From Elsinoe ampelina (lineage: Eukaryota), in NCBI GenBank assembly GCA_010093995.1, contig ML992502.1, positions 1,406,711-1,457,119 of the forward strand: 50,409 nucleotides of DNA, written 5' to 3'. The translations under genes were made by a program, and so were the position numbers. The notes under the pieces are model-generated. The model made no database searches. It saw only the letters and a list, made by a program, of their open reading frames with translations, and was not told the origin of the DNA. Positions 5,159 through 23,766 of the stretch are shown piece after piece; position 1 is the stretch's first letter; every line of letters begins with the position of its first letter.

Positions 5159-7455
5159 ATGTCGGACGAGAAGAAGGGAATCTCCCTTCGCAAAAAGAAG
5201 GGCAGCAATCGTCCCAAGATCAGCGCCCCTCGACCGGTCCCGGAAGATGGTACACCTGGACATACCCCCGATATGGGGAGCGCGCCATTCGAGCCACCAC
5301 CACTGCAGCGTGTTGAGACGAGTCAGAGCAGCTTGCGATCAAGACCTTCCATGACAGCGGACAGGACTGCGGATCTGGTGAAGAGACGATACTCGACAAG
5401 ATTCGTGGGATACCCGCATGATGATAGACTGGCTCCTCCTATGCCGGCAATGCCGTCGCTGCCGACCGAATACCAGTCTGTCAAGTCGGCACCTCCGTCA
5501 AGAGATGGAAAGCCTCCAGAGTCAGGTGTAAAGGCGTTGAAGGTCGATATCAGGGCTTTGAGAGACCCGAACCTGAAGCCGGACCAATGTTCGTCACAAA
5601 GATATGGCAGGTAGAATAGGCACTGACATGTCCAGATATCGCTCACATACTGGCCGATGCGGACGAGCAGGATATCGCCAACTATCAGACCGAGCTGCGT
5701 AAGCTCAAGAATAGGACTTCGACGGATTTGCAGCACAATGTCTACCAGAATCGCACACAGTTCATCAAGATCTCGAAAGAAGCGGAGAAGCTAAAGACCG
5801 AGATGAGGACGTTACGAGGGCTTATGTCAGAGATGACTTCTGCTTTACATCAAGCTGCTCAGGCTGGAGGTGCTGAAGTGTCGGCCATGTCAGTCGCGGA
5901 CAGGAAGAGAGCAAATCGATCATCAGTCGCCAACCTGGAAGCACTCTGGTCAACGCAGCTGCAAGCACTGTGGAAGCGTGTGGAGGGTGCGCAAAAATAT
6001 CTGCCTGCGGTTCCTGGCCGACACATCCTATACGAATCGTCTCGCTGGGTAGAACTCAACGCGGCAACCTGGAAGCCTCGACGACGAGTACATCTCATCC
6101 TGCTAAATGACCACCTTTTAATCGCCACGGAGAAGAAGCGGGCCGAAGGTCTCCCATCGACGTCACCCAACCTCTCATCCAACCGCCGTGTCTCCATGTA
6201 CGGCGCCCACTCCGCCTCCAACCCCACCACCCTCGTAGCCGACCGCTGCTTTCCCCTCTCCGACATCACCATGTCCGACATCTCTCGCTCGGCTCCTACC
6301 CCATCAGACCCCAAACGCTCCCCCGTCAGCAACGCCATCACGGTCCGCTCCGCCACCGAATCCTTCACCTTCGCCACAGGCAACAGCAACGACTCGTCCG
6401 CCGAGAAGAACACCCTCCTAGTCTCCTTCCGCAAAGCCTCGGAAGAACTCCGCAAAACTCTCGCCCTCGAACACGGCGACCGCGAACGCCAACTCTCCGT
6501 CTCCCTCGACCTCCTCTCCCCCGCCTCGGCCGCCTCCTCCGGCGACCGCCGCGGGTCCTCCACCCGCTCCTCCCCCCTCCTGGGCTTCTCCTCGGACCGC
6601 TTCGGCGGCGGCGGCGCCATGATCGACGTCGACGGCCGGCCCCAACCCATCCGCTGGGTGGAAACCCAGATCGACGCGCTGGACATCGACATTGCCCTGC
6701 AACGCTTCGAGGACGCCGTGGCCCGGGTGGAGAAACTGCGCCGCCTCGCCCGCTCGATCCGCGGCAACGCCGCCGCGCAGGAACTCTTCCTGGCCAAGAT
6801 CGACGAGCGCGCCGGCCGCCTCGCGGCCGTCATCTGCCGGCGTCTCCGCCTGGGCTCCTCCGGCGCGGACAAGACCAGGGAAAACGCCGCCTTCCTCCTC
6901 AGGCTGGGCATGGACGACCTCGCCGTGCGCGAGTACCTCGCTTCCCGCACGCATGTCCTCCGGCAACGCACGCGCCAGCTCCCCTTCACGGGCGCGTTGG
7001 CGCCCCACGTGCGCGCGTTGAGCTACATTGTTTTCACGGTCGTGTTGCATACTTTCCGCACGTTCGCGGCGAGTTTCCAGGGGACGAATTACACTTCTGC
7101 CGTGGTCAAGTGGGCCAAGGAGAGGGTGGATGAGTTTAACGAGATGCTGGGGCGGCAGCTGAGCAGTGTGCCGCAGGGAGGCGGGTTGTGGGAGGAGTGT
7201 CTGGGGATCGCGAGGGAGCAGTGTAGGGTGCTCAAGGAGGTGGGGGTGGATTTTGAGGGGTTCGTGGGGAGGGGGATAGAGGGGATCGGGGAGGTCGGAG
7301 AGGTGACGAATGGGGTAGGAGGGTTGAGGGTTAATGGGCAGGTGAATGGAGGGCTGAGTGTACCGAGTCCGGGCGTGGAGGCAAGGAGTCCGATGGATGA
7401 GGAGGGGAGAAGGTTGGGTAGCAAAGGAGTGGGAGTTGGGAAGAGGATGTTCTGA
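5159..7455 (+). CDS. EXO84: Exocyst subunit Exo84; exons 5159-5588, 5636-7455
   Basis: Intron 5589-5635 (GTTCGT..CTGAC..CAG) joins ORFs 5159-5614 and 5728-7455. Motifs ADLVKRRYSTRF, DLQHNVYQNRTQFIKISKEAEKLK, PH-like WVELNAATWKPRR..HLILLNDHLL, and IDALDIDIALQRFEDAV. Confidence 0.93.
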
Positions 7456-7693
7456 GGGACGGCAGGTTATAAGATGTTTAACAGACACTGTCGAGAGCAA
7501 CACAATGTACTCAAAGCAGAACAGAAGCATCTTCGAAGAATGACATATCATCAATACGTGATTACCAAAAGCCTACAAACGCCTGACGACCCAACCTGAA
7601 GATGATGGAACTGCTGACCAAAAAAGTGAGATTCGTAGGGTAACGGCGACCACAGTCGCGCTCGTCAAGGTTGTGGCCAATGCCGTATCCGCA

Positions 7694-10600
7694 TTACAAG
7701 CCCAGGAATGCAAGCTGGGCAAGTACGGCAACAATCGCAAGAGGGTAGCCAGCTCCGATTTGGATCTCAACAGAGTCGGCACCAGAGTCCAAGCTAGGCG
7801 ACGAGGGAGCGGACCCTCCGCTCGGATTTTCGCCGGATCCTGAAGGACCAGTAGGAACGGCATGAGGCTTGTCGCCATGGCTGCTTGCAGAGGCCGACGA
7901 AGAAGCGGTCGAGGTCGCTGATGACGGCGAAACTCTCACTAATCCATCCTTGGCTGTCGACACCATTGACACTGCGGAGGTCGCTGCAGCTGACGGCAAT
8001 GACTCGGGATTTGCAGGGTGGTCACCTTCATTGGAACCTTGTGAGGCAGCCTGTGATGGAGTGATATTGTCACCGTTGTCATTGGCAGGACCAGCAGCTG
8101 GGACAGGTTGTGGTGTAGTAGACGATGATGGTTGGTCTTTTGCTGCGGACGGAGCTGGCCCTGGAGACTGCGAGAGAGTCGTCGTGGCAGAAGCAATCCG
8201 GACTGGCGTAAGGATTGACCATTGGATAGGATACGCCGATGGCTTGGCTGGAGATGCAGACAGAGGTACAGACGAAGTGCCCGAAGGACATGACGTTTTC
8301 GCCGTCTTGGCCGCTGGAACTGTTGAGGAGCTTGGTATCTGCACAGCAGGCGATGGCGGTGAGACCACAGCAGATGACTTTGCGGGAGGCGAAGCGGTTG
8401 AGGTGATTGTCACCGTTGGCGTAGGCCTGGTGGAAGTCAAAGTTACCACTGACGGAACCGCACTCGAGGTTGTATGGACACTGCATTGACTGCACAGCCT
8501 GGTGGTATAGGTGACAAAGCTGGTTGTACTTGTCGTGTGGTATTGCACCGCGGGAGGCTGTGGTACGACCGAGCTGGTGACGGTCACAACAGAAGAGACG
8601 ACTTTGGTAGTCGTATGCTCCGGGCAAATTGGACATCGCCGAGTTGTGAAGGTGGCGATGCTCGTCAAGGTTGTGGTGGGACGTGGGACGACAGGAATCT
8701 TTGGCGACACAATGGTATGGACAGGTACAAAGGTCGAGACTGACACGCTAATACTCGTCTTTGCCGGGCAAATTAGGCACTCACGGGTTGTGAAGGTGAC
8801 CGTCTTGGTGATAGTGACCGGATGTGGGGGCTGGACCACGGGGGTTGATGGGCGCTGGGTGCTGGCAGGCGGTCCTTTGGTCACAGTTGAAGATGTGGAG
8901 GTTAGACCTGGAAGTGTGTCAGCTTTGAAAATTCTCGAAGGCAGCTGTACTCACTGCAGGGAACAATGATCTTGGAAGTGACCGCAGATCCAGAAATCGT
9001 GTCGACCGTGAGGCTTGTCCGACCAGTGCAGCCAATCGTTGTCGGGGATGAGATAGTGGTCAAGTGCGAGGTCCCAGGACTTGGGAGTTGAATCACCGGG
9101 GTCGAGGCACTGATAATTGTCTTCGTGATGGTAGTCAAACCTCCCGGACAAGCGTGGCAGGGTATTGTCTGGTTGATGTAGACAGTGGTAGGAACCGGCT
9201 TCTCATGCATGGTGAGCGTGGTATTGGAGCCCGACATGGTAAGCGTCTTTGACAATGTGATTGGCGGTGGCATCTGGTGTAGGGTGAGCGTACTGTTGGA
9301 TCCTGACATGGTCACGGTCCTCGAGAAGGTGATGAGCGATGGCAGCGGGGTGATGGTCTTTGTGACTGTCTTCTCGATGGTGGAGTCGCCGCGGACGATC
9401 GTGCGGACCGAAGTGACGGTCAATGGCTCCGGAGTGATGAACCGCGTGGCTGGCGTCAGCGTCAAAGTGCGGTTCATTGTAATTTCCTTGGACAAGACCA
9501 TGACGGAGATTGGCGGAGTCACAGTTTCAGTGCTCGCGGACAAGGTCACGGTCTGGTTCTTGGTGACCGGCACGGATCTGACAATGGTTGAAGGATCTGG
9601 AGTGATGGTGCGAGTGACTCCGGAGCCAATGATCGTCCTGTTGTAAGTCACTGGTATTGGTTCGTGGATGGTGTATGGCCGACCAGCGCGAGTGGTTGTG
9701 ACGGTCGCGATATCAGTCTCTGTCGACACGGAGACGGTCCCGTTCTTGGTGACTGTGACTGGAGATGCAACAGTGGTCGTGAAGGTCACAGTCTCGGTCT
9801 CAGGCGCCGGAGTGAAGGTCGACACAAATGTGGATCCGTTCTTGGTGACTGTGCTGACAGGAGCGACTGTGATCGGGAAAATGACGGTCTCTGTTTCTGC
9901 AGGCTTGGTCAGAGTAGAGATGCCCGTCACTGTTGATACCAAGGTTGAGCCATTCCGTGTGAGTGTGCTGAGCGAGGTCACCGTCATAGGGACGAAGACA
10001 GTCTCGGCCCCAGTAGATTCAGTGACAGTGGAAGCAGGCTTGCTGAGGGTGACTGTCTCGCGGAGCTCCTGCGTCTTGACCTGTTGTATCGTGGTGGTAA
10101 CCAATGAAATCACCGTTGCTGTGGAGTTTGTGCCGGGCAAGGTAGAGAAGACTGTGGTCGGCACGATCGTGGTGATCGGCGGCTCGCTACGTGTGCGGGT
10201 GACGGTGTGCAGGTGGACTGATGAGGGGCTGCTGACTGAGACGGTGAGGGTTTCCTTGACAATGGTGTAGCTGATGGATGGCACTGTGACGGTATGTGGT
10301 GGATTATGCACCGTCTGTGTCTTGGTCTCGAAAAGTGTCGTCACCGGCGGGACAGTCTTTGTCAATATTCTTCGAGTAGTATCACCACCGTGGAGAGTCA
10401 CTGTTCTGGTTCCGAGTAGTAGCGTCGTTGTCTTTCCAATCGTCTCCGTCTCGGTCGTTCGTGTAAGACGTCCGCCATCCAGCGTGGTGGTTCGGCTTTC
10501 GGTGGTGACGGTACCAGCAATGATGGTGGAGGTTTTGGTGGTCAAAACGATATGCCCAGTGACAGTTCTGGTGGAGCCTGTAATGGGAAGTTTCACTGTC

Positions 10601-10772: not shown

Positions 10773-11600
10773 GGTGCTTGTCTGCACTTTGTATCGCTTG
10801 ATGCACCAATTCGATTCTCTCGTACCAGATGAACAGGCTATGGGTCGAAGAATGCTTGATACAAATGGAACGAGGAAACGGACAATATGAATGTGATTAT
10901 ACCGAATGGTATTTGGAATTGATGATGTTGAGATGCATGAGAAGTATGATAGTGGATCAACTTAGCAGAAGTGTAGGAGCCTTCGAAAGTCACTCGCAAG
11001 GAAGGTGCGGGTCAAGAGGGAGTTGCCATTCGCGACAAGCATAGCAAGGGCGAAGTAGACTCTGAACAATTGATGCTTGATCTCCTGTGTCGAGAACCTC
11101 ACTGGTCGTACGTCCACCATTGGAAGCAAGCACGCGCTGCTCGCGGCAGTCCATTGTACCATCCGACAGGTGTAGATGATCCTCTGAACAGAGTGTAGAG
11201 CTCGTCGGCACCGTTGTTGAGCATCTCGTATAACAACGAGATGCACGCTCAAACGGGTCCAACTTTGAAGAGAAAGAGAGGACGCAGCCAAAGCGTTTTA
11301 TACAGCTGCGGCTCTGCTTCGTGAGTTGAGTTGAGCACGGGCTTCGGAATTGAGATGCACGGCCCCGCATCGGATCGAAGCTGCCTGAGACGCCTGATGA
11401 GCGATCTCGGTACTGTATTAAGTAATAAGTAATGAATCTCCCATCGCTGCCCAAGATCTAGAAAGCTTAAAAAGCTACCGCATCGTCTTTCATTTGTAAC
11501 TTTTCGGTCACAGTCCCTACGAAACACTTCATATATCAGGTCACGAACGATCCTCACCACCACCTTCTCGTCGACGGTATCCAATCAAGCATCAACTCCA

Positions 11601-12812
11601 ATGGCAAACGCCAACGTCCTCTCGGCTCACTCGCTAGCAAGTCTAATAGCTCAGTCACTACCTGCAGAAGCATCGCCACAGCTCAAGTCACCTTACGATG
11701 CAGTCGCAGTAGCTGTCCACGCTGCCATGATCGCTGTCGGCTTCCGCCTCATCGGACTCGGCGAAGACGACCGATTACCTCACTCCGACAAGCCAGTCCG
11801 CACACTACCGGACAACTGGAATCTCCAGTCGCCAGCCAGCTTCAGCTTCAAATATGCCCACACGCAGTCGTCGATGCAGTTCTTGGTCAAGGTGAACAGA
11901 ATGGGAACAAAAGCTGTGGTCATGGGCATGGGTATAGGCGACGACAAGACAACCACATTTGATGTCAAGATTGACGAGTACATCTCTCCCTCGTCTGTGC
12001 CGGCATCCCCGACCAAAGATGACACAACGCCCACGCCGAGCGAGACACCATCAAATCCTTCCTCGCCAGTACCCACACGCTCTCCTACAGACCTTCCCGA
12101 AACACCAAAGCATATTCGCCAGAAGGTCATTGACATCTTCATCTCAAACGGACGCCTCTCAGACTTTGGAGCTCTGGCACGCCTACATCTCATACAGAAG
12201 CTCCTCCCTTCACTACACAAGCAGGGCTACGAAGAGACGAGAGCCGCTACTAGTGCCGAATCGACTTCTACGGGTAACCGCCCACAGCGGCCAGACGCCA
12301 ACGAACCCTCACAGCCAGCCCGACCAAATCCTCTCCATGACCCGCTTGCCATGCCTCCTCGCCGTCCAGGTGTAGCACCTGGAGAATTCGCTCCGCCAGG
12401 CTTCGAAGACGAATACGACATGACCCGGCCTCCGCGACCATTTGCGCCAGGCATGGGCGGGGGAAACATGGGCATCGGACACCGTGATCTCTATCCACAG
12501 GGCCTCGGCCCAAATGATCCATTCAGAAACATCGGCCCTGGACTCGGTGGACCAGGAGGCGGCATGGGAGGCGGCATGCACCCGGACTTTAACGACCCAA
12601 TGTTCACCGGACAGGGACGTGGAAGAGGCGGGGATGATCCATTCGGATACGACAGCCAGGCGCCGCCGGGAGCGAGATACGATCCGGTCGGACCAGGAGG
12701 TGCGCCTCGAGGAAGCGGCGGAGGAGGAAGATTCCCCGGTGGAGGTGCTGGGGGCATGGGAGGCAGACCGCACAACCCCTTCGGAGGTTTTGGCGGTGGT
12801 GACTTCATCTAG
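11601..12812 (+). CDS. Proteasome regulator PI31 (PSMF1/Fub1-like), 403 aa
   Basis: FP domain (AVHAAMIAVGFRLIGLGE..F.YAHTQSSMQFLVKV), Pro/Gly-rich C-terminus with IGHRDLYP, GMHP, PPGARYDP and terminal DFI. Confidence 0.9.
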   Translation: MANANVLSAHSLASLIAQSLPAEASPQLKSPYDAVAVAVHAAMIAVGFRLIGLGEDDRLPHSDKPVRTLPDNWNLQSPASFSFKYAHTQSSMQFLVKVNRMGTKAVVMGMGIGDDKTTTFDVKIDEYISPSSVPASPTKDDTTPTPSETPSNPSSPVPTRSPTDLPETPKHIRQKVIDIFISNGRLSDFGALARLHLIQKLLPSLHKQGYEETRAATSAESTSTGNRPQRPDANEPSQPARPNPLHDPLAMPPRRPGVAPGEFAPPGFEDEYDMTRPPRPFAPGMGGGNMGIGHRDLYPQGLGPNDPFRNIGPGLGGPGGGMGGGMHPDFNDPMFTGQGRGRGGDDPFGYDSQAPPGARYDPVGPGGAPRGSGGGGRFPGGGAGGMGGRPHNPFGGFGGGDFI

Positions 12813-14496: not shown

Positions 14497-16455
14497 CTCC
14501 TTTACTCCACGTCATGCATCGGCTCTTCCCTGTCATGTCTGGGTCGAGATGCAGAGTGACGCTGAAAGGGGGCCACGGACGATCGGGGCTGAATAGGACG
14601 TGGTCAGAGCTGTGCAGGCTCTACAGGAGCCATATTGACGTGCAGCTGAGGAAGAAGAAACATGGTTGATGCTTTTGGGCTGAGCTGGAGCTGAACTCTG
14701 TAGCATGAGAAGAGAGAGTACTGTAGCGCGCATGGGCCGGGCGAGCCCTCGAGGAGCGCAAGCGGGTTTTCGCTTGTGACAAAGTCCAAATGTGTGCGAG
14801 CTGGGGACGCTCGGAGACTTTTTTTTTCTACTGGACTATTACAGTGCAAGGAGTTCGAGAAATGGTGTGCACAGCATGGTGATTCTGTGGTTGCACCATG
14901 CCATTGATGACACGGAGACCGAGGCCGTGATCAGCTTCTGTCGTTAATGGTATTGATGCAGGAAGCATTGCCGGGTATAATGCGACCAAGGCACGGTGAC
15001 TCGCTCGCAACATCTGCGATCATACAGTGGCACAGCATGCCCTTTAAGCATACGAACCCAGCAGACCGGGCAGTGGTGGAAAATACGCCGCTTGCTCACC
15101 ACTGGGTACCTAGTGGCCGTTGCAACAAATTGCCTGCCCTACCTGCCATGATTCTTCGACAATGCTGTGCGTCAGATCTGCCGTGGGTCGATATTGACCT
15201 GATCTTTGATGAGAGTCATGGTCCTGCGACCACCGGTACGCAACCGAAGTCGATGTGAGTTCTGGTCCGACAGGCGCAGAGGGCAAGGGAATCATGGACG
15301 GTTCGGTTGCAGGCGGAGCGAGCGATCGGGCGCCGTCAATGAATCAGGGTCAGTGAGGGATGCTGGGCGTTGAAATGGTCGTGTCAAGATTGTTTGGTAT
15401 GGGAAATGCACTACGATGAGGCATTGACATGCGAACCAGGCATGGACACGAGCGAGGAGGCCTCGGGAATGCCTCATTACTCGGCATTGAGCTGGGTCAG
15501 GCTGACGGATGTGGTGTATGAGCTGTCATGAGTTGCATGCTCTGTCACTCTCCGGTCGTGTATTTTGGGTGGGCGCGTGATGGTCGTCCTCCATTCGCAG
15601 CATCTGTAGTGTTGTTTCCCACCACCCGCCGGAGAAGGCTTTTCAATTCTAGGAGTGCGTTTTCTCAACCATGGAAAGAGTGAACCCCTACTTTGCGCAA
15701 GCCGGAAAAGTATGGTAAGCTAGACGTGATGATATATGCATGTATAGCCTATTTTCTTGTCGCCGCAACTGCGGCGTTACAGAGACGTTTGTAGTTGGGT
15801 ACCACGACAAATGCATGAGATGAGCCACTGCAGGATGCTCGTCATGCCTGCTTTGAGCAGATGTGTCCGAGTCAGTTGCCCGCATGCCAATGGTGGTCAC
15901 GGGAGTGGCTTCAGCAAATCTTCGATGCAATGGAAAGCCGTCTGTCGGAGAAGGCGAGGCCAGACAGGGATATGCAGGTCTGGAGAACTGGTTGTGTCAT
16001 TTCCCTAGTGTCTCAGACTCCAAAGAATGCTGGGCTTGAAGCTGAGATAAATGATGCAGCATAGACCAATTGGACAATTCCATTGATGCGGGCTGACAGG
16101 CGGGCTGAAAGCTGATCAGCGACTGGTCTCTTACCGGGCCTTTTTGGGTTGATCTACGGTCTTCTTAGATCGAGAAAGACGACGGGCGAGATACGGCCGT
16201 CAGGAATACAGTGAGGCTGATGGTGGTCTGTGAGAAATGGGCGCTTCGCGCCGTGGCTAAAGGACCGTCAGGAACGGACCGGCTGCGCTGTCGTCTACAG
16301 TTCAACCGAGCCACCCCGGGCTTGGCGTGTTGTACTCCGCGTCGACCTCTCGTCATTAAATTTGGCTAGCCAGAAGTCCATAGAGAATACCGATAAATTG
16401 AAGCTGAAAAAAGGTGTAATAGTTGCTATACTACTCTAATTAGGTTATCACTGTT

Positions 16456-17463
16456 ATAGTTAATTATTAGATAGCTAAATTGAAACTAGTAGACGTGTAG
16501 TTCTTACTTACTAAAGAGTATACTAATTGTGCTATTTATGCTACTACTAAGGTAGCTAGAGCTATAATCCGCTAAATTCGACTATTCCTTAAGTTCTTTA
16601 GCACTTCTTATTCTTCTATTAAAGCTTATATACTATNNNNNNNNNNNNNNNNNNNNNNNNNNNNNNNNNNNNNNNNNNNNNNNNNNNNNNNNNNNNNNNN
16701 NNNNNNNNNNNNNNNNNNNNNNNNNNNNNNNNNNNNNNNNNNNNNNNNNNNNNNNNNNNNNNNNNNNNNNNNNNNNNNNNNNNNNNNNNNNNNNNNNNNN
16801 NNNNNNNNNNNNNNNNNNNNNNNNNNNNNNNNNNNNNNNNNNNNNNNNNNNNNNNNNNNNNNNNNNNNNNNNNNNNNNNNNNNNNNNNNNNNNNNNNNNN
16901 NNNNNNNNNNNNNNNNNNNNNNNNNNNNNNNNNNNNNNNNNNNNNNNNNNNNNNNNNNNNNNNNNNNNNNNNNNNNNNNNNNNNNNNNNNNNNNNNNNNN
17001 NNNNNNNNNNNNNNNNNNNNNNNNNNNNNNNNNNNNNNNNNNNNNNNNNNNNNNNNNNNNNTTACTAGCTATTACTATTAATAGCTATCTCTCTAGTACC
17101 TTAATCTACTATAGATTAATTACTAGTAAGATCTTTATTAGCTAGCTAATAGATATAATAATACTAGAGCTTCTAGCTAGTATAATCTTCGTTATAGATA
17201 ATACTTTAATTTACTAAAGCGATAAGGTAAAGAAGCTAGTATAAGAGCATAGAAGTTACCTTAAATACCTACTACTCTATTTGCTAGATTTTAATTCTAT
17301 TAAGTAATTCTTCTTAGTACTAAAGGCGTAGGTAAAGTAATACTATAATCTAGTCGCTAGGTACAAGGAATACGCTAATTTCTTAGAGCTAGCTATTTAC
17401 TTATATAGCGGACTATACGCTAAGGTGCACTTTAAGAGCTATAGATATAGCGTAAGGTTATAG
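16456..17463 (+). pseudogene. Fossil Tc1-like DDE transposase (~335 codons, interrupted by the assembly gap)
   Basis: Reversing RIP changes gives VMDNASIH (D codon 17197) and YLPPYSPDFNPIE (17266-17304), with exactly 34 residues between D and E, then FSVLKAWVKRH...HFKSCGY. The N-terminus gives an HTH-like IRRIRLSLEFFGTPYPP. Start position approximate. Confidence 0.88.
16637..17061. other. Assembly gap (425 N) inside the transposase
   Basis: Run of N, typical of a collapsed multicopy repeat. Confidence 1.
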
Positions 17464-17496
17464 GGGATCTATTTAGTACATAAGAAATTACTTATG

Positions 17497-19419
17497 TTAA
17501 ATAAGTTTAATACTAAGACCTAGTAAAAACTCTTTACTACTACTACAACTACTCTATACTATATATATACTACTCCGAGTTAGATAAACTAAGTCTAGTT
17601 TAGTAGCCGAACTAGATTAATATCTATCTTAGCTGCCGAGCTAGTTAAATTATCTATTACGCTACGTAAATTAGTATCTATATTAGCTACTATAAACTAG
17701 GTAAAAGTGTCTATTTCGACTACTAAGATAGTAAGGTATCTAACTTACTTAATTTGATCTAGCTTGTGTAACTATCTTAGAGTGATACTAGCGCTTAAAA
17801 GGGCTAATTTAGCTTTAAATCCGGTATAGAAGGCCTTTATTAAAGACCTAGGTATCTCTCTACCTATTTAAGCGTATATCTCTTACGCTGTCGAGGTTGT
17901 AATTCTCCTTCTTTAGCTTAAATTTAACCTAATCTAGCACCTAAATATCTCTTTTAAAGCTTCTTTTTCTCTTTATCTACTTAAAGAATTTAGTTAAAAC
18001 TTTATAAGAGTTAGTCTTAGAAGTAATAGGTAAGGATCTTAAGTCGTTTATAGGCCCTAAGCGCTACTATAGCTAGTAAGGAGTAATTAAGTTTATAATA
18101 TTAATATAGTTAATAGGTGTCAGAGGAAGTATAAAAGGCACTAAAGACACTAAAGGCGTTAGTGTTAATAGTATTAGTAAAGCGCTTTTAATACTCCTTA
18201 AGGCCTTTAAGCAATTAAGGCTTAATATAAGGCCTATAGAAGAATAATTAATAGTAGCTTTACTATTATAAATAGTAGTAGCCTAGGTATACTTATTCTC
18301 TATTACAATCTAGTAGTACTTACTAGTTAATATATACTAGTATAACCTCTTATAGTTATAGTAATTACAATTAGTACAAGTCTATACCAACTCTAATAGA
18401 GGCTCCTTATTACTATTTACACCCTCGAGTACACTATATAATTAGCTTATTACTAAGCCTTAACCTTATAATAGTAGCGCTAGCTATACTACCTACGAAG
18501 ATAGTAGTATTATACTAGCTACTAGAGTCTATACTATTCTTACTAGCGTCGATCTAAGGGAGGATTACTATAAAGGCAGTAGTAGTAGACCTATTAAAGA
18601 GCTTAGAACTAGTATAGTTAAAGGTAGTTATATAACTCTTAAATTTGCTATAGAGTTTATAGCTATTAGTACCTTCTTTATCTCGGTAGTAAGGCCGAGC
18701 CTAAGCTACTAGTAATCCTTAGTAAGCTAATCTTTAAGCTTATTAACTAGCCTCTATATCTTAGCTAGCTCTAATATTACTACTCTAAATAGCTACTATA
18801 TACTAAGACGCTTATAGGTAGTAGTATAATTAAGTAAAAGTAGCTCGAGTATAGCTTAAGTAATAAGACTACTCTTCTCTACTACCTAATTAGCTAGTAC
18901 TAACTACGATAGATTACTTAGCTAGCTAAATATATACTTGTTATAGTATAGAGTCTTACTTCCAAGCTTTACTACTAGCCTTACCTCTACTATCTAACTA
19001 AGATAAAGTATATATAAGTCGCTAGGATTAGTCTCTAGTAACTCTAGCACTTACGATAACTATAGTACCTCTATTACCTATATATCTAGCTCTTCCTTCG
19101 GTACTATATCTAACTTAATTAACTGCCTTAGCTAGTCTAGTACAGGTGTTAGAAACCTTAATTAAAGAGACAGCTACTAAGATCTAGCTTATAAAGGTAG
19201 TATAACTTAGTTTATAGCTTACTCTATAAGCCTCTAAAGAGCTAGGTTAGTAGATGTAACCTCTAGATAAGGTGCTACCTACGCTAGCGCTAGTGTATAG
19301 CTCTTTAGCTAGATAGTTAGACTACGACAAAGGTTATCTAGTACCTTCTCTAATAAGCTTAAGGAGTACCTTAAAGAAGAAGAGACTAGTAGTAATAATA
19401 GAGAAGTAAAGAATATTAT
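17497..19419 (-). pseudogene. Fossil second ORF of the transposon (~640 codons), unknown function
   Basis: One reading frame gives protein-like sequence throughout when TAA/TAG are read back to CAA/CAG/TGG. Contains a Cys/His cluster at ~18384-18241 and a helical LRSSPI..VLTEFFEW..YNLDSVR..GLLYRIQSQISPFKR region at ~18045-17790. Ends approximate. Confidence 0.65.
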
Positions 19420-21446
19420 AATTGTCTTCTATACTGCCCTTAAAGGTTTCTTTACATAGCTAGAGCAATAGTTAGTCATAGAAGAAGAACACTTACAAGC
19501 TATAATTTAGTAACGTTAGTGTATACTAACTAGTCTATTACACCTTTTTTTTAGCTTTAATTTTATTTAAATAGACAGCGTTGTTAAGCTATTCGACTCT
19601 ATATTCTCTCTAGACCTCCAGCCAGCCAATTTTGGTAAGCAGAAGTCGGTGAAGAGTACCGCCAAGCCCGGGGTGGCTCGGTTGAACTCAAAACGACTGT
19701 ACCGAGGACCGTGCGATAGCATCGTCAATTAGACGACTCCGCATGATGGATACGACTACGTCTGATCTCAACCATGCGCCGACGTTCAGCTTGCATGTCA
19801 ATCATCCCAGCGAAATTGAAGTTGATGGAGGGCTGAGCACAGCAAAAACAGTGACGATCTGTGTCATCTTCCGGTACTACCAGTGCGGGACCTGCCAACC
19901 GCCAAAAAGCATAGAGGTCGTCTCGATGATTGCCGCCGCGAATCAGGGGAGCGCTTGAGCAGACTACTGCGGCTAGCACGACGATCTGTAGCCTAGCTCC
20001 GCGTCTTGACCGGTTGCTCTCTTGGCTCGCATCGCTCCGTGTGGAGTGCGCTCGAGCAAAAAGGCATGTGAATTATCGAATGATCGATGTCATTCGTGAC
20101 GTTGTGGAACCCCCTCGACGTCGATGGTCCATGCAGCCTCGGTTTAGTGTCTTGTTCTGCGCGACCTGTTGGAGGACCGAGATTGATTTGAATTATTGGC
20201 CCTCTGTGCGTTTGGCAGACCAGACCCGCAAGCTAAGCAAGCCCGAAAAGAACGCCCAAGGTTTGCCTCGTTTCTGCATACGAGTGCCCCTCGAGAGAAC
20301 AGACGAAGCTTATTCTCCCTTCACCGGTTGCTGTGGGTCGTCACCCGGACAGGTCACAAGAAAAGAGGTTTGAACGAATACGCAAGCGGAGCGAAGCAAC
20401 CGAACGTGCCAATCTCAAAACTCAAAACGGGCAGGAAAGAGGGTAGGGGTAAGGGAGTGGAGAAGACAGAAGGCATACCTGCGAGCGTCATGCAGTAGCG
20501 CATGGTAGTGTACCGGAGTAGAAGTTGCGAGCTACAGCGCCTGTTCGCTGCCGTGACAGCAAAAGACGCAATCCGGATGCCCATGCCAGGACACTGATTC
20601 ATCGACGTCCCGAATTCAGAGCAAACACGGCAGAATTGATTAGGGTGCAATCTGCGCTGAAATGGGAAGGAGCTGTGCCTCCCGCGAGAGAGACCCAGTC
20701 ATGTAGCCGCGTCAAGCGCTTTCGCCCGGCGCTTAGCGGAGCTTTGCCCAACTTCACTCGTCGTCGCTATTCGTCCTTGAGCCAGCCACCACCGGTGTCG
20801 CCCAGCCCGTCAATGTCAAGGTGACTCGTGTCTTCTGCGATCGACTCACCCTTCCAAAAGTCACCGTGGGGCTCCAGGGTCTGTCGACATCTGTGGCTTT
20901 TTGTGATCGACTGACTGTTGACGCGGCACTTTCGGGGGGACGCATCGGCCGCTCTCTCGGTAGCTTGTCCGGCCTAGAAAATGACTAGCCGTGGACTATT
21001 ACTGATATACGCGTGCGATTGAGGGGAACTTGTAATCACGGTACTGTTTCTGTCGAGCCGGCGGATGCAAAATGATCGTGTCGCACTTGGCTGTTGCGCT
21101 GACGTTGAGCTGCATCTCAGCTTGTCGAGCGCACGTTCGCGTTGTTTCAAACAGTCTTCCCAGCTCAGAGAAAGTCAAGCCTGTACATGGCGTTCTCGAA
21201 GCGCCAATGCTTGCATCACATCTGCGGCATGCGCGAGTGAACCAGCCGTGTCACACACCATCTCAAGCCTCCCACGTACCGTCCCGAGGCCGTTGACGAA
21301 AGCCGGAAGTACAGAGTCGTGGTTCGTGTGAAATTACTATCGGACATGTTCAAATGCTACCACCCATCATGCAATGTCGCCGTCATTTTGTCCCTTATGC
21401 ATACTTTCATGTCCATGCCTCGTTCCCACGCCCGTGCATACCCTAT

Positions 21447-22708
21447 CTAATGCCACTCTGTCGGTACTTCTTTTTTGACGTAGACACCCGTGTCGGAATT
21501 GGATCTGTGCCTGCCCCTGCGCGAGCTCTGACCAGTCCGGCGTTGCTTGAGGTCGAGCCGTTTTGAGCAACCGTCTTCAATGTGTCTATACCAAGGTCAG
21601 ACAATCTCATGGCAACGTTTGTATGATACTCACCGTCTTGCAGTGTCCTTTCTCGTAAATCTGGATCCACATTGGGGACAGGGATATTTCCTGTCTCTAA
21701 TGTGTACCTGATACTCATTAGCAGAGTCACAGCACAGTCATGGTAAAGACTCACACTGTCAAAGTGTCTACTCAAATCCGCGCGCCTCTCAAATGCCTTG
21801 TCGCAGGCTGGATACTGACAGACCCACGCGCGTTCCCTCGTAGGGTCATGCGTCCTCATATGTGCCTTGAGATTGTAGCTGCGTTGGAAGAATTGTTTGC
21901 AGATGTGACACTGATGCACAGTTGTGTCCTGAGTAGCGTAGACCCTCTTCCTCCGATGCAATCCAACAGACGATTCGCCCTCACTGTCATGCCCCTCGGA
22001 ATCCTGGGACGACCTCGAATGTGAAGAGACGGAATGACGAGAGGGCACCTGCTCGAGAAAGGGACTGAGCCTTTCCTCTTTGACGGCAGGCGTCATTGGA
22101 TATTGATAAGCTTGTTGTGTTGGCAAAGTCGCGTTCGAGGGTACAATCGACTGCGTTCTGGACATGAACACTGACGAAGAGTCCGAGTCTTCTGCTTTGA
22201 TGTGTGGGGACGCTCCATAGTACGAGTCTGCAGGGTGAATGAATGGCGAAGAAGCAGCAGACACCTCCGAGGCAAAGTCCAAGTCCTGTACACTGGGAGA
22301 TGGTCGAAGGTTCATCCAGTTGTTACCGTCCTCAACCGTCTGGTTCTGCCTGAGGTAGCCACTATTGTCTGCCATGCTCGGCATAGTGACGAATTGACCT
22401 TGTGCTTGCCAGCTTGAGCCAGAGACATATGGTATACCTCCTGAGCCTGAGTACGCCTGTGACCGCTCATTCATGAACGGATGCGTGGAGGTATATGGGT
22501 TTAGAAGAGTAGCCATGTCTGTAGGACTGACTGGTGAGTTCAGCCCAAAGGATCCCGTCGAAGGTAGTTGATGTCCAGGGGCAGAGACACTCCTCACGGA
22601 AGAAGGTCGGAGAACCAATTGATGTGGGGCGGAAGTACTGGGTAATCGCTGTGGTTGTTGTCGTGAGAGATGTGAGCGCTGATTGTATGGTGTTTGTTCG
22701 TGACTCAT
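21447..22708 (-). CDS. C2H2 zinc-finger transcription factor (3 C-terminal fingers); exons 22708-21755, 21707-21634, 21585-21447
   Basis: CHICKQFFQRSYNLKAHMRTH and CQYPACDKAFERRADLSRHFDSVH. Removing introns 21754-21708 and 21633-21586 (both GTGAGT..CTAAT/CTGAC..YAG) restores a third finger, CPQCGSRFTRKDTARRHIEDGC. S/Q/P-rich N-terminus. Confidence 0.88.
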
Positions 22709-23766
22709 AGCAGTACAATACAACAAGTCAAGAAGATCTCTTCATAGATGAGCATCACCATGTGATAGCGGTTGAGAGACCAATGGTATTTGGCGCGGCA
22801 AAGGGTCCGGAGTTGCAAGGGACTGTAGTGCGGGTGGCCCGATGAGATTAGCCAGCACTCGAGACCGGTAGAGAGCAGTTGAGAATGGATCCAAAAGTGT
22901 CATGGAGAAGGTGAACTATTTGAAAGGAAATGACAGACCGGTCAACCAAAGTAGGACACGCCTAAGACTCCAGGCAGCTCCGCTCGTCGAGTAGCGACCT
23001 GGCAGGCGCGCAAATCCCTGCATAATGGAGCTGTCGTCTTGTCCGGTGGCCGAGATTGACTGGCGCTTGAGAGTCGACAGAGTGCGGCTGGACAGACAGT
23101 AGGGTTCATGGGTCGGTAGGGCATTCCGCAGTCAATGGCCCGGCAGTGACCGAGCTGTGAGCGACGGGCATCTTCTGACGAGTCGTTTATGGAACGTATC
23201 AGTCGTAGAGTGGGAGCTGAAAGGTGAGCCGGCACACGATTGGACCGTCGAAGGTAGGGGACATCAGGCAAGAGGCCTCGGCTCCGGTCCGACTGTGCAC
23301 TGGAGCAGACAGCCAAACACGACTATTCCGTTAGTGATGATACCAAGAGACCCGACAGAATGGATAACGGATGCGTTAATGAAACGGAGCCAAATATGCT
23401 TCTGAAGTTGCGCCTTGCCAACTAGCTGCATCGCCGAGCACCGCTTTTGCTGGCGAAGCCGCTACAAGCGCTGCGACCTGTCGTCCGAGCGCAATGTCGA
23501 ACTTCCGGTCAAGGGAAAACTCTGCTTGTTTGACATGCTGTGGTGTCTCCATTTTTTGAATTCGGAGTTGTGCTTGAATCATGAGGACAGGCGGATTTTT
23601 GTGCCTTTTTCCCCCCCTCCCTCCGATGCCTGACGCTGTGGCACGATCGACGTTCGAGGTGTCCGCACCGCGCCAGGCCGCAACGCCCGCCCGTGCCTGC
23701 AACCTGCAAAACCCTGAATAAAACAATCAGCCATGGCGGAGCACTGTCTCAACCACAGTTCATCAA

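Follow-up and report, generated by a model that had tools for sequence, protein, structure and literature searches.

The window, by which we mean the whole 50,409-nt stretch of DNA analyzed here, contains at 16288-19699 a 3.4-kb (3412 nt) RIP-degraded Tc1-like transposon that is bounded by long inverted repeats and has a DDE_3 transposase on the plus strand. Between this gene and the right end is a segment of approximately 2 kb that once encoded protein (Table 1). Both genes are dead in this copy. RIP consists of transitions only (C-to-T and G-to-A) and creates TA dinucleotides, and composition along the window marks an AT-rich island at approximately 16.37-19.62 kb, in which GC is 0.28-0.31 versus 0.50-0.60 around it, TpA/ApT is 2.0-2.4 versus 0.54-0.55 outside, and (CpA+TpG)/(ApC+GpT) is 0.14-0.48 versus 1.2-1.3 outside. 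These dinucleotide indices are a signature of RIP, which suggests that the host is a RIP-competent fungus. The last index is 0.14-0.16 in both the 3' piece of the transposase and the segment at 17497-19419, in agreement with the initial annotation, which had described the segment as being as heavily RIPped as the transposase.

There is no long host ORF at approximately 14.0-21.4 kb, and the AT-rich island is therefore intergenic. A search of 15500-20500 against Rfam returned 0 families. The closest long ORF on the right side of the element is a 432-codon open frame on the minus strand (21443-22741) with C2H2 zinc-finger-like motifs, for example HQCHICKQFFQRSYNLKAHMRTH. Elsewhere in the window, positions 6001-7000 combine a G+C of 0.667 with a GC skew of -0.28, after which the skew is +0.26 to +0.28 across 7001-10000. 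Several long open frames overlap on both strands at 5620-7572, and a 458-codon plus-strand open frame (11436-12812) has as its C-terminal end a long Gly/Pro-rich low-complexity tail.

Table 1. Features of the Tc1-like element, in positions of the window.
Feature	Position	Strand	Basis or remark
Left long terminal inverted repeat	16288..16437	+	Repeat scans, transition-tolerant alignment
Exact 29-nt inverted-repeat core	16299..16327, partner 19660-19688	+	Motif search
Tc1-like DD34E transposase relic	16456..17463	+	DDE_3 match; frame supported by composition models and Viterbi path
N run, 425 nt, inside transposase	16637..17061	.	
Segment A	17464..17960	.	Coding-like phase is that of the transposase frame (+1) or its mirror (-2)
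Segment B	17961..19470	.	Approximately 500 codons in one phase, +2 or its mirror -0 (the frame proposed earlier)
Right long terminal inverted repeat	19521..19699	-	Terminus ...CGACTG
TA, expected Tc1/mariner target dinucleotide	19700..19701	.	Adjoins right terminus

Inverted ends and target site

A 29-bp terminal inverted repeat had been reported in the initial annotation, and this core is indeed an exact inverted pair, with 2 matches and none in 100 shuffles. The true ends are far longer, at approximately 150-180 nt each. A 38-nt inverted pair at 92% is among the end repeats, and the top two inverted pairs in a transition-blind scan of 16250-19750 were 16285-16327/19660-19702 and 16332-16390/19601-19659, the long ends being the sole significant inverted repeat in that scan. 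Gapped transition-tolerant alignment extends the likeness of the ends to approximately 16437/19521, with two insertions in the right arm. The outer ~40 nt of both ends (16288-16330 and 19657-19699) are G+C-rich, have kept their CpA sites, and are almost free of RIP; the inner portions are heavily RIPped, and the left and right arms differ there mainly by transitions. A sharp RIP edge runs inside the repeated unit, between the outer ~40 nt and the inner repeat.

In contigs from sequencing run X4 (organism C), likeness to the window stops at 19701/19702 and the flanks are unlike, which places the right terminus at ...CGACTG (19699) with TA after it. The left counterpart of this TA, at 16286-16287, reads CG, and the left terminus would be at 16288. 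Set side by side, with a slash at the terminus, 16286-16289 reads CG/CT and 19698-19701 reads ...CTG/TA, so the second base of the left terminus is T and not A. The CG-for-TA difference on the left has the opposite direction to RIP, and the T-for-A difference is a transversion. With transitions allowed, a directly repeated copy of the outer 43 nt was found in the inner part of neither end (scores of 21 and 19, versus shuffle means of ~20.6).

The transposase relic

With 1008 nt, or approximately 336 codons, the transposase occupies 30% of the 3412-nt element, as the initial annotation had it in assigning the gene less than a third of the span. Its start is ATA at 16456, which is ATG after RIP, and its stop is TAG at 17461-17463. 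With stops read as X, plus-strand 17062-17463 matches DDE_3 (PF13358) at E = 6e-5 and 23.4 bits, residues 11-93 of the piece aligning with model positions 51-135 of 146; that the score falls under the curated cut-off of 28.6 bits is expected of a RIPped half-domain. The motifs VIDN and DFNSIK lie 35 residues apart, which is the D-34-E spacing, and the K of DFNSIK fits an E altered by a G-to-A transition. The position of the first catalytic D falls within the N run, which also covers most of the DNA-binding/catalytic junction. The TAG stop is 53 residues past the catalytic E(K), and Tc1 transposases usually end about that far past this residue.

The segment belongs to a repeat family

Eight sequencing runs were found, and contigs from four of them (X1, X3, X4, and X5) aligned at a likeness of at least 80%. 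Run X1 (organism A) gave 1796 contig pieces covering all 30 bins of 17062-19760, a depth that does not equal copy number, and X1 is possibly the window's own sample, in which case it is not independent. Its pieces fall into likeness classes of 584, 596, 510, and 106, and 182 of the 188 kinds of change listed are transitions, so that transposase end, segment, and right end all occur in numerous RIP-diverged versions. All 30 bins were also covered by the 96 pieces of X3 (organism B) and by the 122 of X4 (organism C). The junction between transposase and segment is bridged by single contigs in both (X3 record 9, 17369-17620; X4 record 19, 17375-17657), and a 1551-nt contig in X4 (record 17) stays collinear with the window from 17068 to a point past 17920. 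Run X5 (organism D) provided one contig, 17087-17344, which lies inside the transposase. This cover of the whole stretch, together with the junction-bridging contigs and the three organism labels, indicates that the segment belongs to a multicopy family.

No significant repeat pair of the TIR or LTR kind was found bounding 17464-19520 in the transition-blind scan, which TIRs shorter than ~20 nt would escape. The collinear junction and the lack of an internal TIR pair argue that the segment was mobilized as part of the element, and against a private nested insertion. The claim that the segment was multicopy and traveled with the transposon is thus supported by the cover of all bins in X1, X3, and X4, the bridged junction, and the preponderance of transitions among the changes. 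An independent nested element, which the initial annotation had named as the contrary case, is not favored for the segment, for which that scan found no TIRs of its own and whose junction is kept in the contigs of other organism labels. We also considered the segment as a second copy of the transposase in inverted or direct orientation and rejected this, since the transition-tolerant local alignment scores were not above those of dinucleotide shuffles (102 versus a mean of 96 with sd 9, and 75 versus a mean of 61 with sd 7). Mononucleotide shuffles overstated the likeness between transposase and segment, and the N run lay outside the comparison. No DDE_3 match was found by Pfam in the minus frames of the segment.

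A once-coding segment in two phases

The absence of a long ORF from the remaining ~2 kb, noted initially, was seen here as well, the longest open run in the segment being 69 codons on the minus strand and 82 on the plus strand. TA dinucleotides are nonetheless distributed unevenly among the three phases, with counts of 107/152/71 in 17980-19560 (chi-square p = 3e-7) and of 42/19/33 in 17464-17960 (p = 0.014). The TA-depleted phase shifts near 17950, and before that point it coincides with that of the transposase frame. The 2-kb segment was once protein-coding, over approximately 500 codons in one phase and approximately 150 codons in another.

Stop counts follow the same division. Across 641 codons there are 59 stops in -0, 55 in its plus mirror, and 80-99 in the other four frames. 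In 17961-19419 (486 codons) the counts are 34 in +2, 41 in -0, and 50-87 in the other four, while in 17497-17960 (154 codons) they are 11 in +1, 12 in -2, 18 in -0, and 18-30 in the rest. The initial annotation had proposed a single minus-strand frame of ~640 codons that ends about 30 bp from the transposase stop. This frame has more stops than its mirror over the full length, and the phase shift near 17950 together with the 18 stops in 154 codons means that a single 640-codon frame fails over its last ~150 codons, in 17497-17960.

An ATG in frame +1 lies at 17494 in segment A, which also includes a (TAC)n run (17535-17561) and, at 17600-17657, a tandem repeat of 2.0 copies of a 29-30-nt unit. 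Segment B may be bounded by the plus-strand TAG at 19458-19460 or, on the minus strand, by ATG at 19479 or ATA at 19503. A further tandem repeat at 18134-18155 consists of 2.4 copies of AAAGACACT, whose 9 nt keep it in frame on both strands.

Which strand was coding

A frame and its mirror on the opposite strand put TA at identical codon positions. Both therefore lose their stops together, and a readable translation cannot tell the strand. Because RIP makes transitions only, the purine/pyrimidine sequence is ancestral, and its statistics can be used to assign the strand. This is a trap for any annotation after RIP, in which a "coherent" read-through translation does not reveal the coding strand but purine/pyrimidine statistics can.

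Two composition models were applied, resting on only 16-18 host ORFs, from which transposon codon usage may differ. A purine/pyrimidine dicodon model trained on the long ORFs of this window called 16 of 18 left-out ORFs correctly and gave, for 17960-19419, scores of 28.7 for +2, -5.1 for -1, and -7.0 for -0. A RIP-aware codon model, which sums over all RIP-compatible ancestors and was right for 44 of 48 simulated RIPped ORFs, scored +2 at 12.0 versus 1.5 for -0 over 486 codons. The plus margin over these codons is thus 10.5 nats by the RIP-aware model and 35.7 nats by the dicodon model. Simulation was extended to 25 chunks of 486 codons, a set with little independence because it consists of 5 ORFs in 5 replicates. 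The median lead of the true frame over its mirror was 6.8 and 15.5 nats (minima -2.0 and 0.8), and in none of the 25 was the mirror ahead by 10.5 or 35.7 nats. Purine fractions at codon positions 1-3 point the same way, at 0.59/0.47/0.43 for +2 against a host mean of 0.61/0.46/0.46. For -0 they are 0.53/0.41/0.57, with a third-position value (R3) that exceeds both the 0.38-0.51 spanned by 16 host ORFs and the 0.40-0.46 of the transposase itself.

The signal varies along the segment. The Viterbi path holds the transposase plus frame over 16402-17589, passes to the minus strand (-2) over 17590-17903, and returns to plus (+2) over 17904-19635. Windows within 17812-18411 slightly prefer the minus frame in both composition models, and the bin at 18240-18359 has 8 stops in +2 versus 3 in -0. 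Over 17464-17960 the strands score alike, at 10.7 versus 7.9 and 2.8 versus 4.3 in the two models. A plus ORF from the ATG at 17494 would begin only ~30 nt past the transposase stop, which is awkward for a fungal gene. In the right arm, the ATA at 19503-19501 and the ATG at 19479-19477, both in -0, match the place of the transposase start.

From these results the segment was probably coding on the plus strand, in which case the two genes are in tandem and not convergent; coding on the minus strand is a distinctly less probable reading that nevertheless deserves weight. The convergent minus-strand gene of the initial annotation is accordingly not established, as composition favors plus and the symmetry of the ends argues for minus.

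Homology and structure searches

Searched as two read-through proteins and as six X-masked frames, 17400-19600 matched 0 Pfam families at E <= 10, even though the equally RIPped piece of the transposase is still detected by Pfam. Against PDB sequences, the plus-frame protein had 0 hits and the minus-frame protein had 7, all at E >= 0.41; these (MarR, invertase, and ABC ATPase) were rejected as chance matches. Word-indexed protein searches returned none at E <= 0.01, whether for the minus frame, compared with proteins of near and of shorter length, or for residues 160-664 of the plus frame. A full HMMER scan of 1.84 billion representatives, made with the plus frame only, gave 0 hits at E <= 0.001, and the lack of matches carries less weight for the minus frame. 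AlphaFold2 in single-sequence mode reached a mean pLDDT of 40.8 for the plus-frame and 37.8 for the minus-frame protein, with no residue at or above 70, and the models are unusable. Of the coherent minus-strand protein proposed initially, what stands is the coding-like TA phase bias; homology and fold lend it no support.

A metagenome scan with a 25-nt core of the terminal inverted repeat returned 0 matches. An 18-nt core gave 21 loci, all of them G+C-rich. They agree with the end at 22-32 of 53 positions, a count to which the 18 searched positions contribute, and all were rejected as chance.

Discussion

The element shares with canonical Tc1-type transposons (DD34E, DDE_3) a ~336-codon plus-strand DDE_3 transposase with D-34-E spacing, as well as terminal inverted repeats beginning CAGT/CTGT and a TA adjoining the right end. 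Tc1/mariner is the textbook minimal transposon, with one gene between two short repeats. An excerpt of PMC4188875 gives these elements a general size of 1.3-2.4 kb and a single ORF. The present element differs from them in its length of 3412 nt, its ends of ~150-180 nt, and its ~2 kb of extra, once-coding sequence before the right end. With the long-IR (IR/DR) Tc1 elements, for example Sleeping Beauty, it shares ends far beyond the usual 30-60 nt, but its outer end motif was not found to recur as a direct repeat farther in. IR/DR elements are not known to carry any gene besides the transposase. The outline of a DDE transposase and a second ORF within one TIR pair is shared with PIF/Harbinger. 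That is a different superfamily (DDE_4, 3-bp target duplication), in which the transposase is accompanied by a Myb-like DNA-binding ORF, whereas the six frames of the segment here showed no Myb/SANT or other Pfam domain. A fungal Tc1/IS630-like element of ~3.3 kb is hupfer of Beauveria bassiana, whose transposase ORF takes up only ~1 kb; on this description, hupfer would come nearest to the present element in its size and arrangement. The literature searched yielded no description of a two-gene fungal Tc1 element and no text on hupfer. The IR/DR class is named in an excerpt of PMC5224488, and a two-gene Tc1 element goes unmentioned in the excerpts of a survey of fungal cut-and-paste transposons (PMC5751038) and of a deRIP study (PMC3017866).

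What lies at this locus is a dead member of an unusual two-module Tc1 family. In the explanation that we prefer, to which we give a probability of roughly one half, the family is a RIP-inactivated, two-module Tc1-like one whose integral, formerly coding ~2-kb module, more probably on the plus strand, encoded an element-specific protein. The master copy would have carried the ~336-codon transposase and a second protein-coding module of ~2 kb. The transposase would have bound the shared long ends and mobilized the whole 3.4 kb, including the second module, in cis. This module would have been on the same strand as the transposase, in tandem with it or possibly fused to it, and would have encoded a passenger or accessory protein, specific to the element, that took no part in the DDE chemistry. 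RIP would then have killed all of the copies seen.

The strongest competitor, though a tentative one, is a convergent second gene, encoded on the minus strand, that starts just inside the right end and stops near the transposase stop, with each end supplying promoter, leader, and start codon to the gene beside it. Where a eukaryotic element has two genes, it is commoner for them to converge and for each to have a promoter of its own. The likeness of the ends reaches to ~19 nt before the transposase start, and the right arm has its ATA and ATG in -0 at that place. The 59 stops of -0 in 641 codons, where four of the other frames have 80-99, the local minus preference at 17812-18411, the 3 versus 8 stops at 18240-18359, and the plus frame matching nothing in a full HMMER scan that was made with that frame only are all consistent with it as well. 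Weighing against it are the 55 stops of the plus mirror, the plus lead of 35.7 and 10.5 nats, margins that the mirror frame reached in 0 of 25 simulations, an R3 of 0.57 that is outside the range of the 16 host ORFs and above the transposase's 0.40-0.46, and the failure of -0 in 17497-17960; the minus-frame protein also has no relative in the word-indexed searches, Pfam, or PDB.

Two other explanations are each improbable. There may have been no separate gene, if the TAG at 17461-17463 is a RIP product of CAG or TGG and was originally read through, so that the 2 kb would have lengthened the transposase at its C terminus into a protein of ~1000 residues. The low-TA phase of the transposase (+1) does continue unbroken to approximately 17950, and the Viterbi path holds the transposase frame over 16402-17589 with plus favored further on, but the stop at 53 residues past the catalytic E(K) is where a Tc1 transposase usually ends, a phase change near 17950 is still required, and the strands score alike in 17464-17960 (10.7 versus 7.9; 2.8 versus 4.3). 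The segment may alternatively be foreign coding DNA, a host gene fragment or an old element, captured before amplification and carried as functionless cargo. Such capture would agree with the lack of a family match in any frame and with the two distinct phases and internal short tandem repeats, and it has a precedent in fungal repeat families that hold captured host genes, as described in the excerpt of PMC3017866. On the other hand, no transposase, reverse-transcriptase, or other element domain was found in the six frames although the RIPped transposase is still found, the segment has no significant likeness to its own transposase in either orientation when compared with dinucleotide shuffles, and the junction is kept in contigs of three organism labels, which fits long retention.

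A bolder version of the two-gene arrangement, which we regard as unlikely, is a conserved two-gene Tc1 family of RIP-competent ascomycetes in which both long ends carry promoter, leader, and start codon, the left one driving the transposase and the right one an orphan accessory factor of ~650 residues from the opposite strand, with a role in targeting, regulation, or anti-silencing. If true, this would be an accessory factor of a kind undescribed for the Tc1/mariner superfamily. As the copy is dead and no relative was found, its practical value is, for now, to guide the annotation of repeats in these fungi. Among Tc1/mariner elements, a family that amplified in several fungi and retained a second, ~2-kb coding module would be exceptional, and it would point to an accessory function or to the stable carriage of cargo by a very small element.
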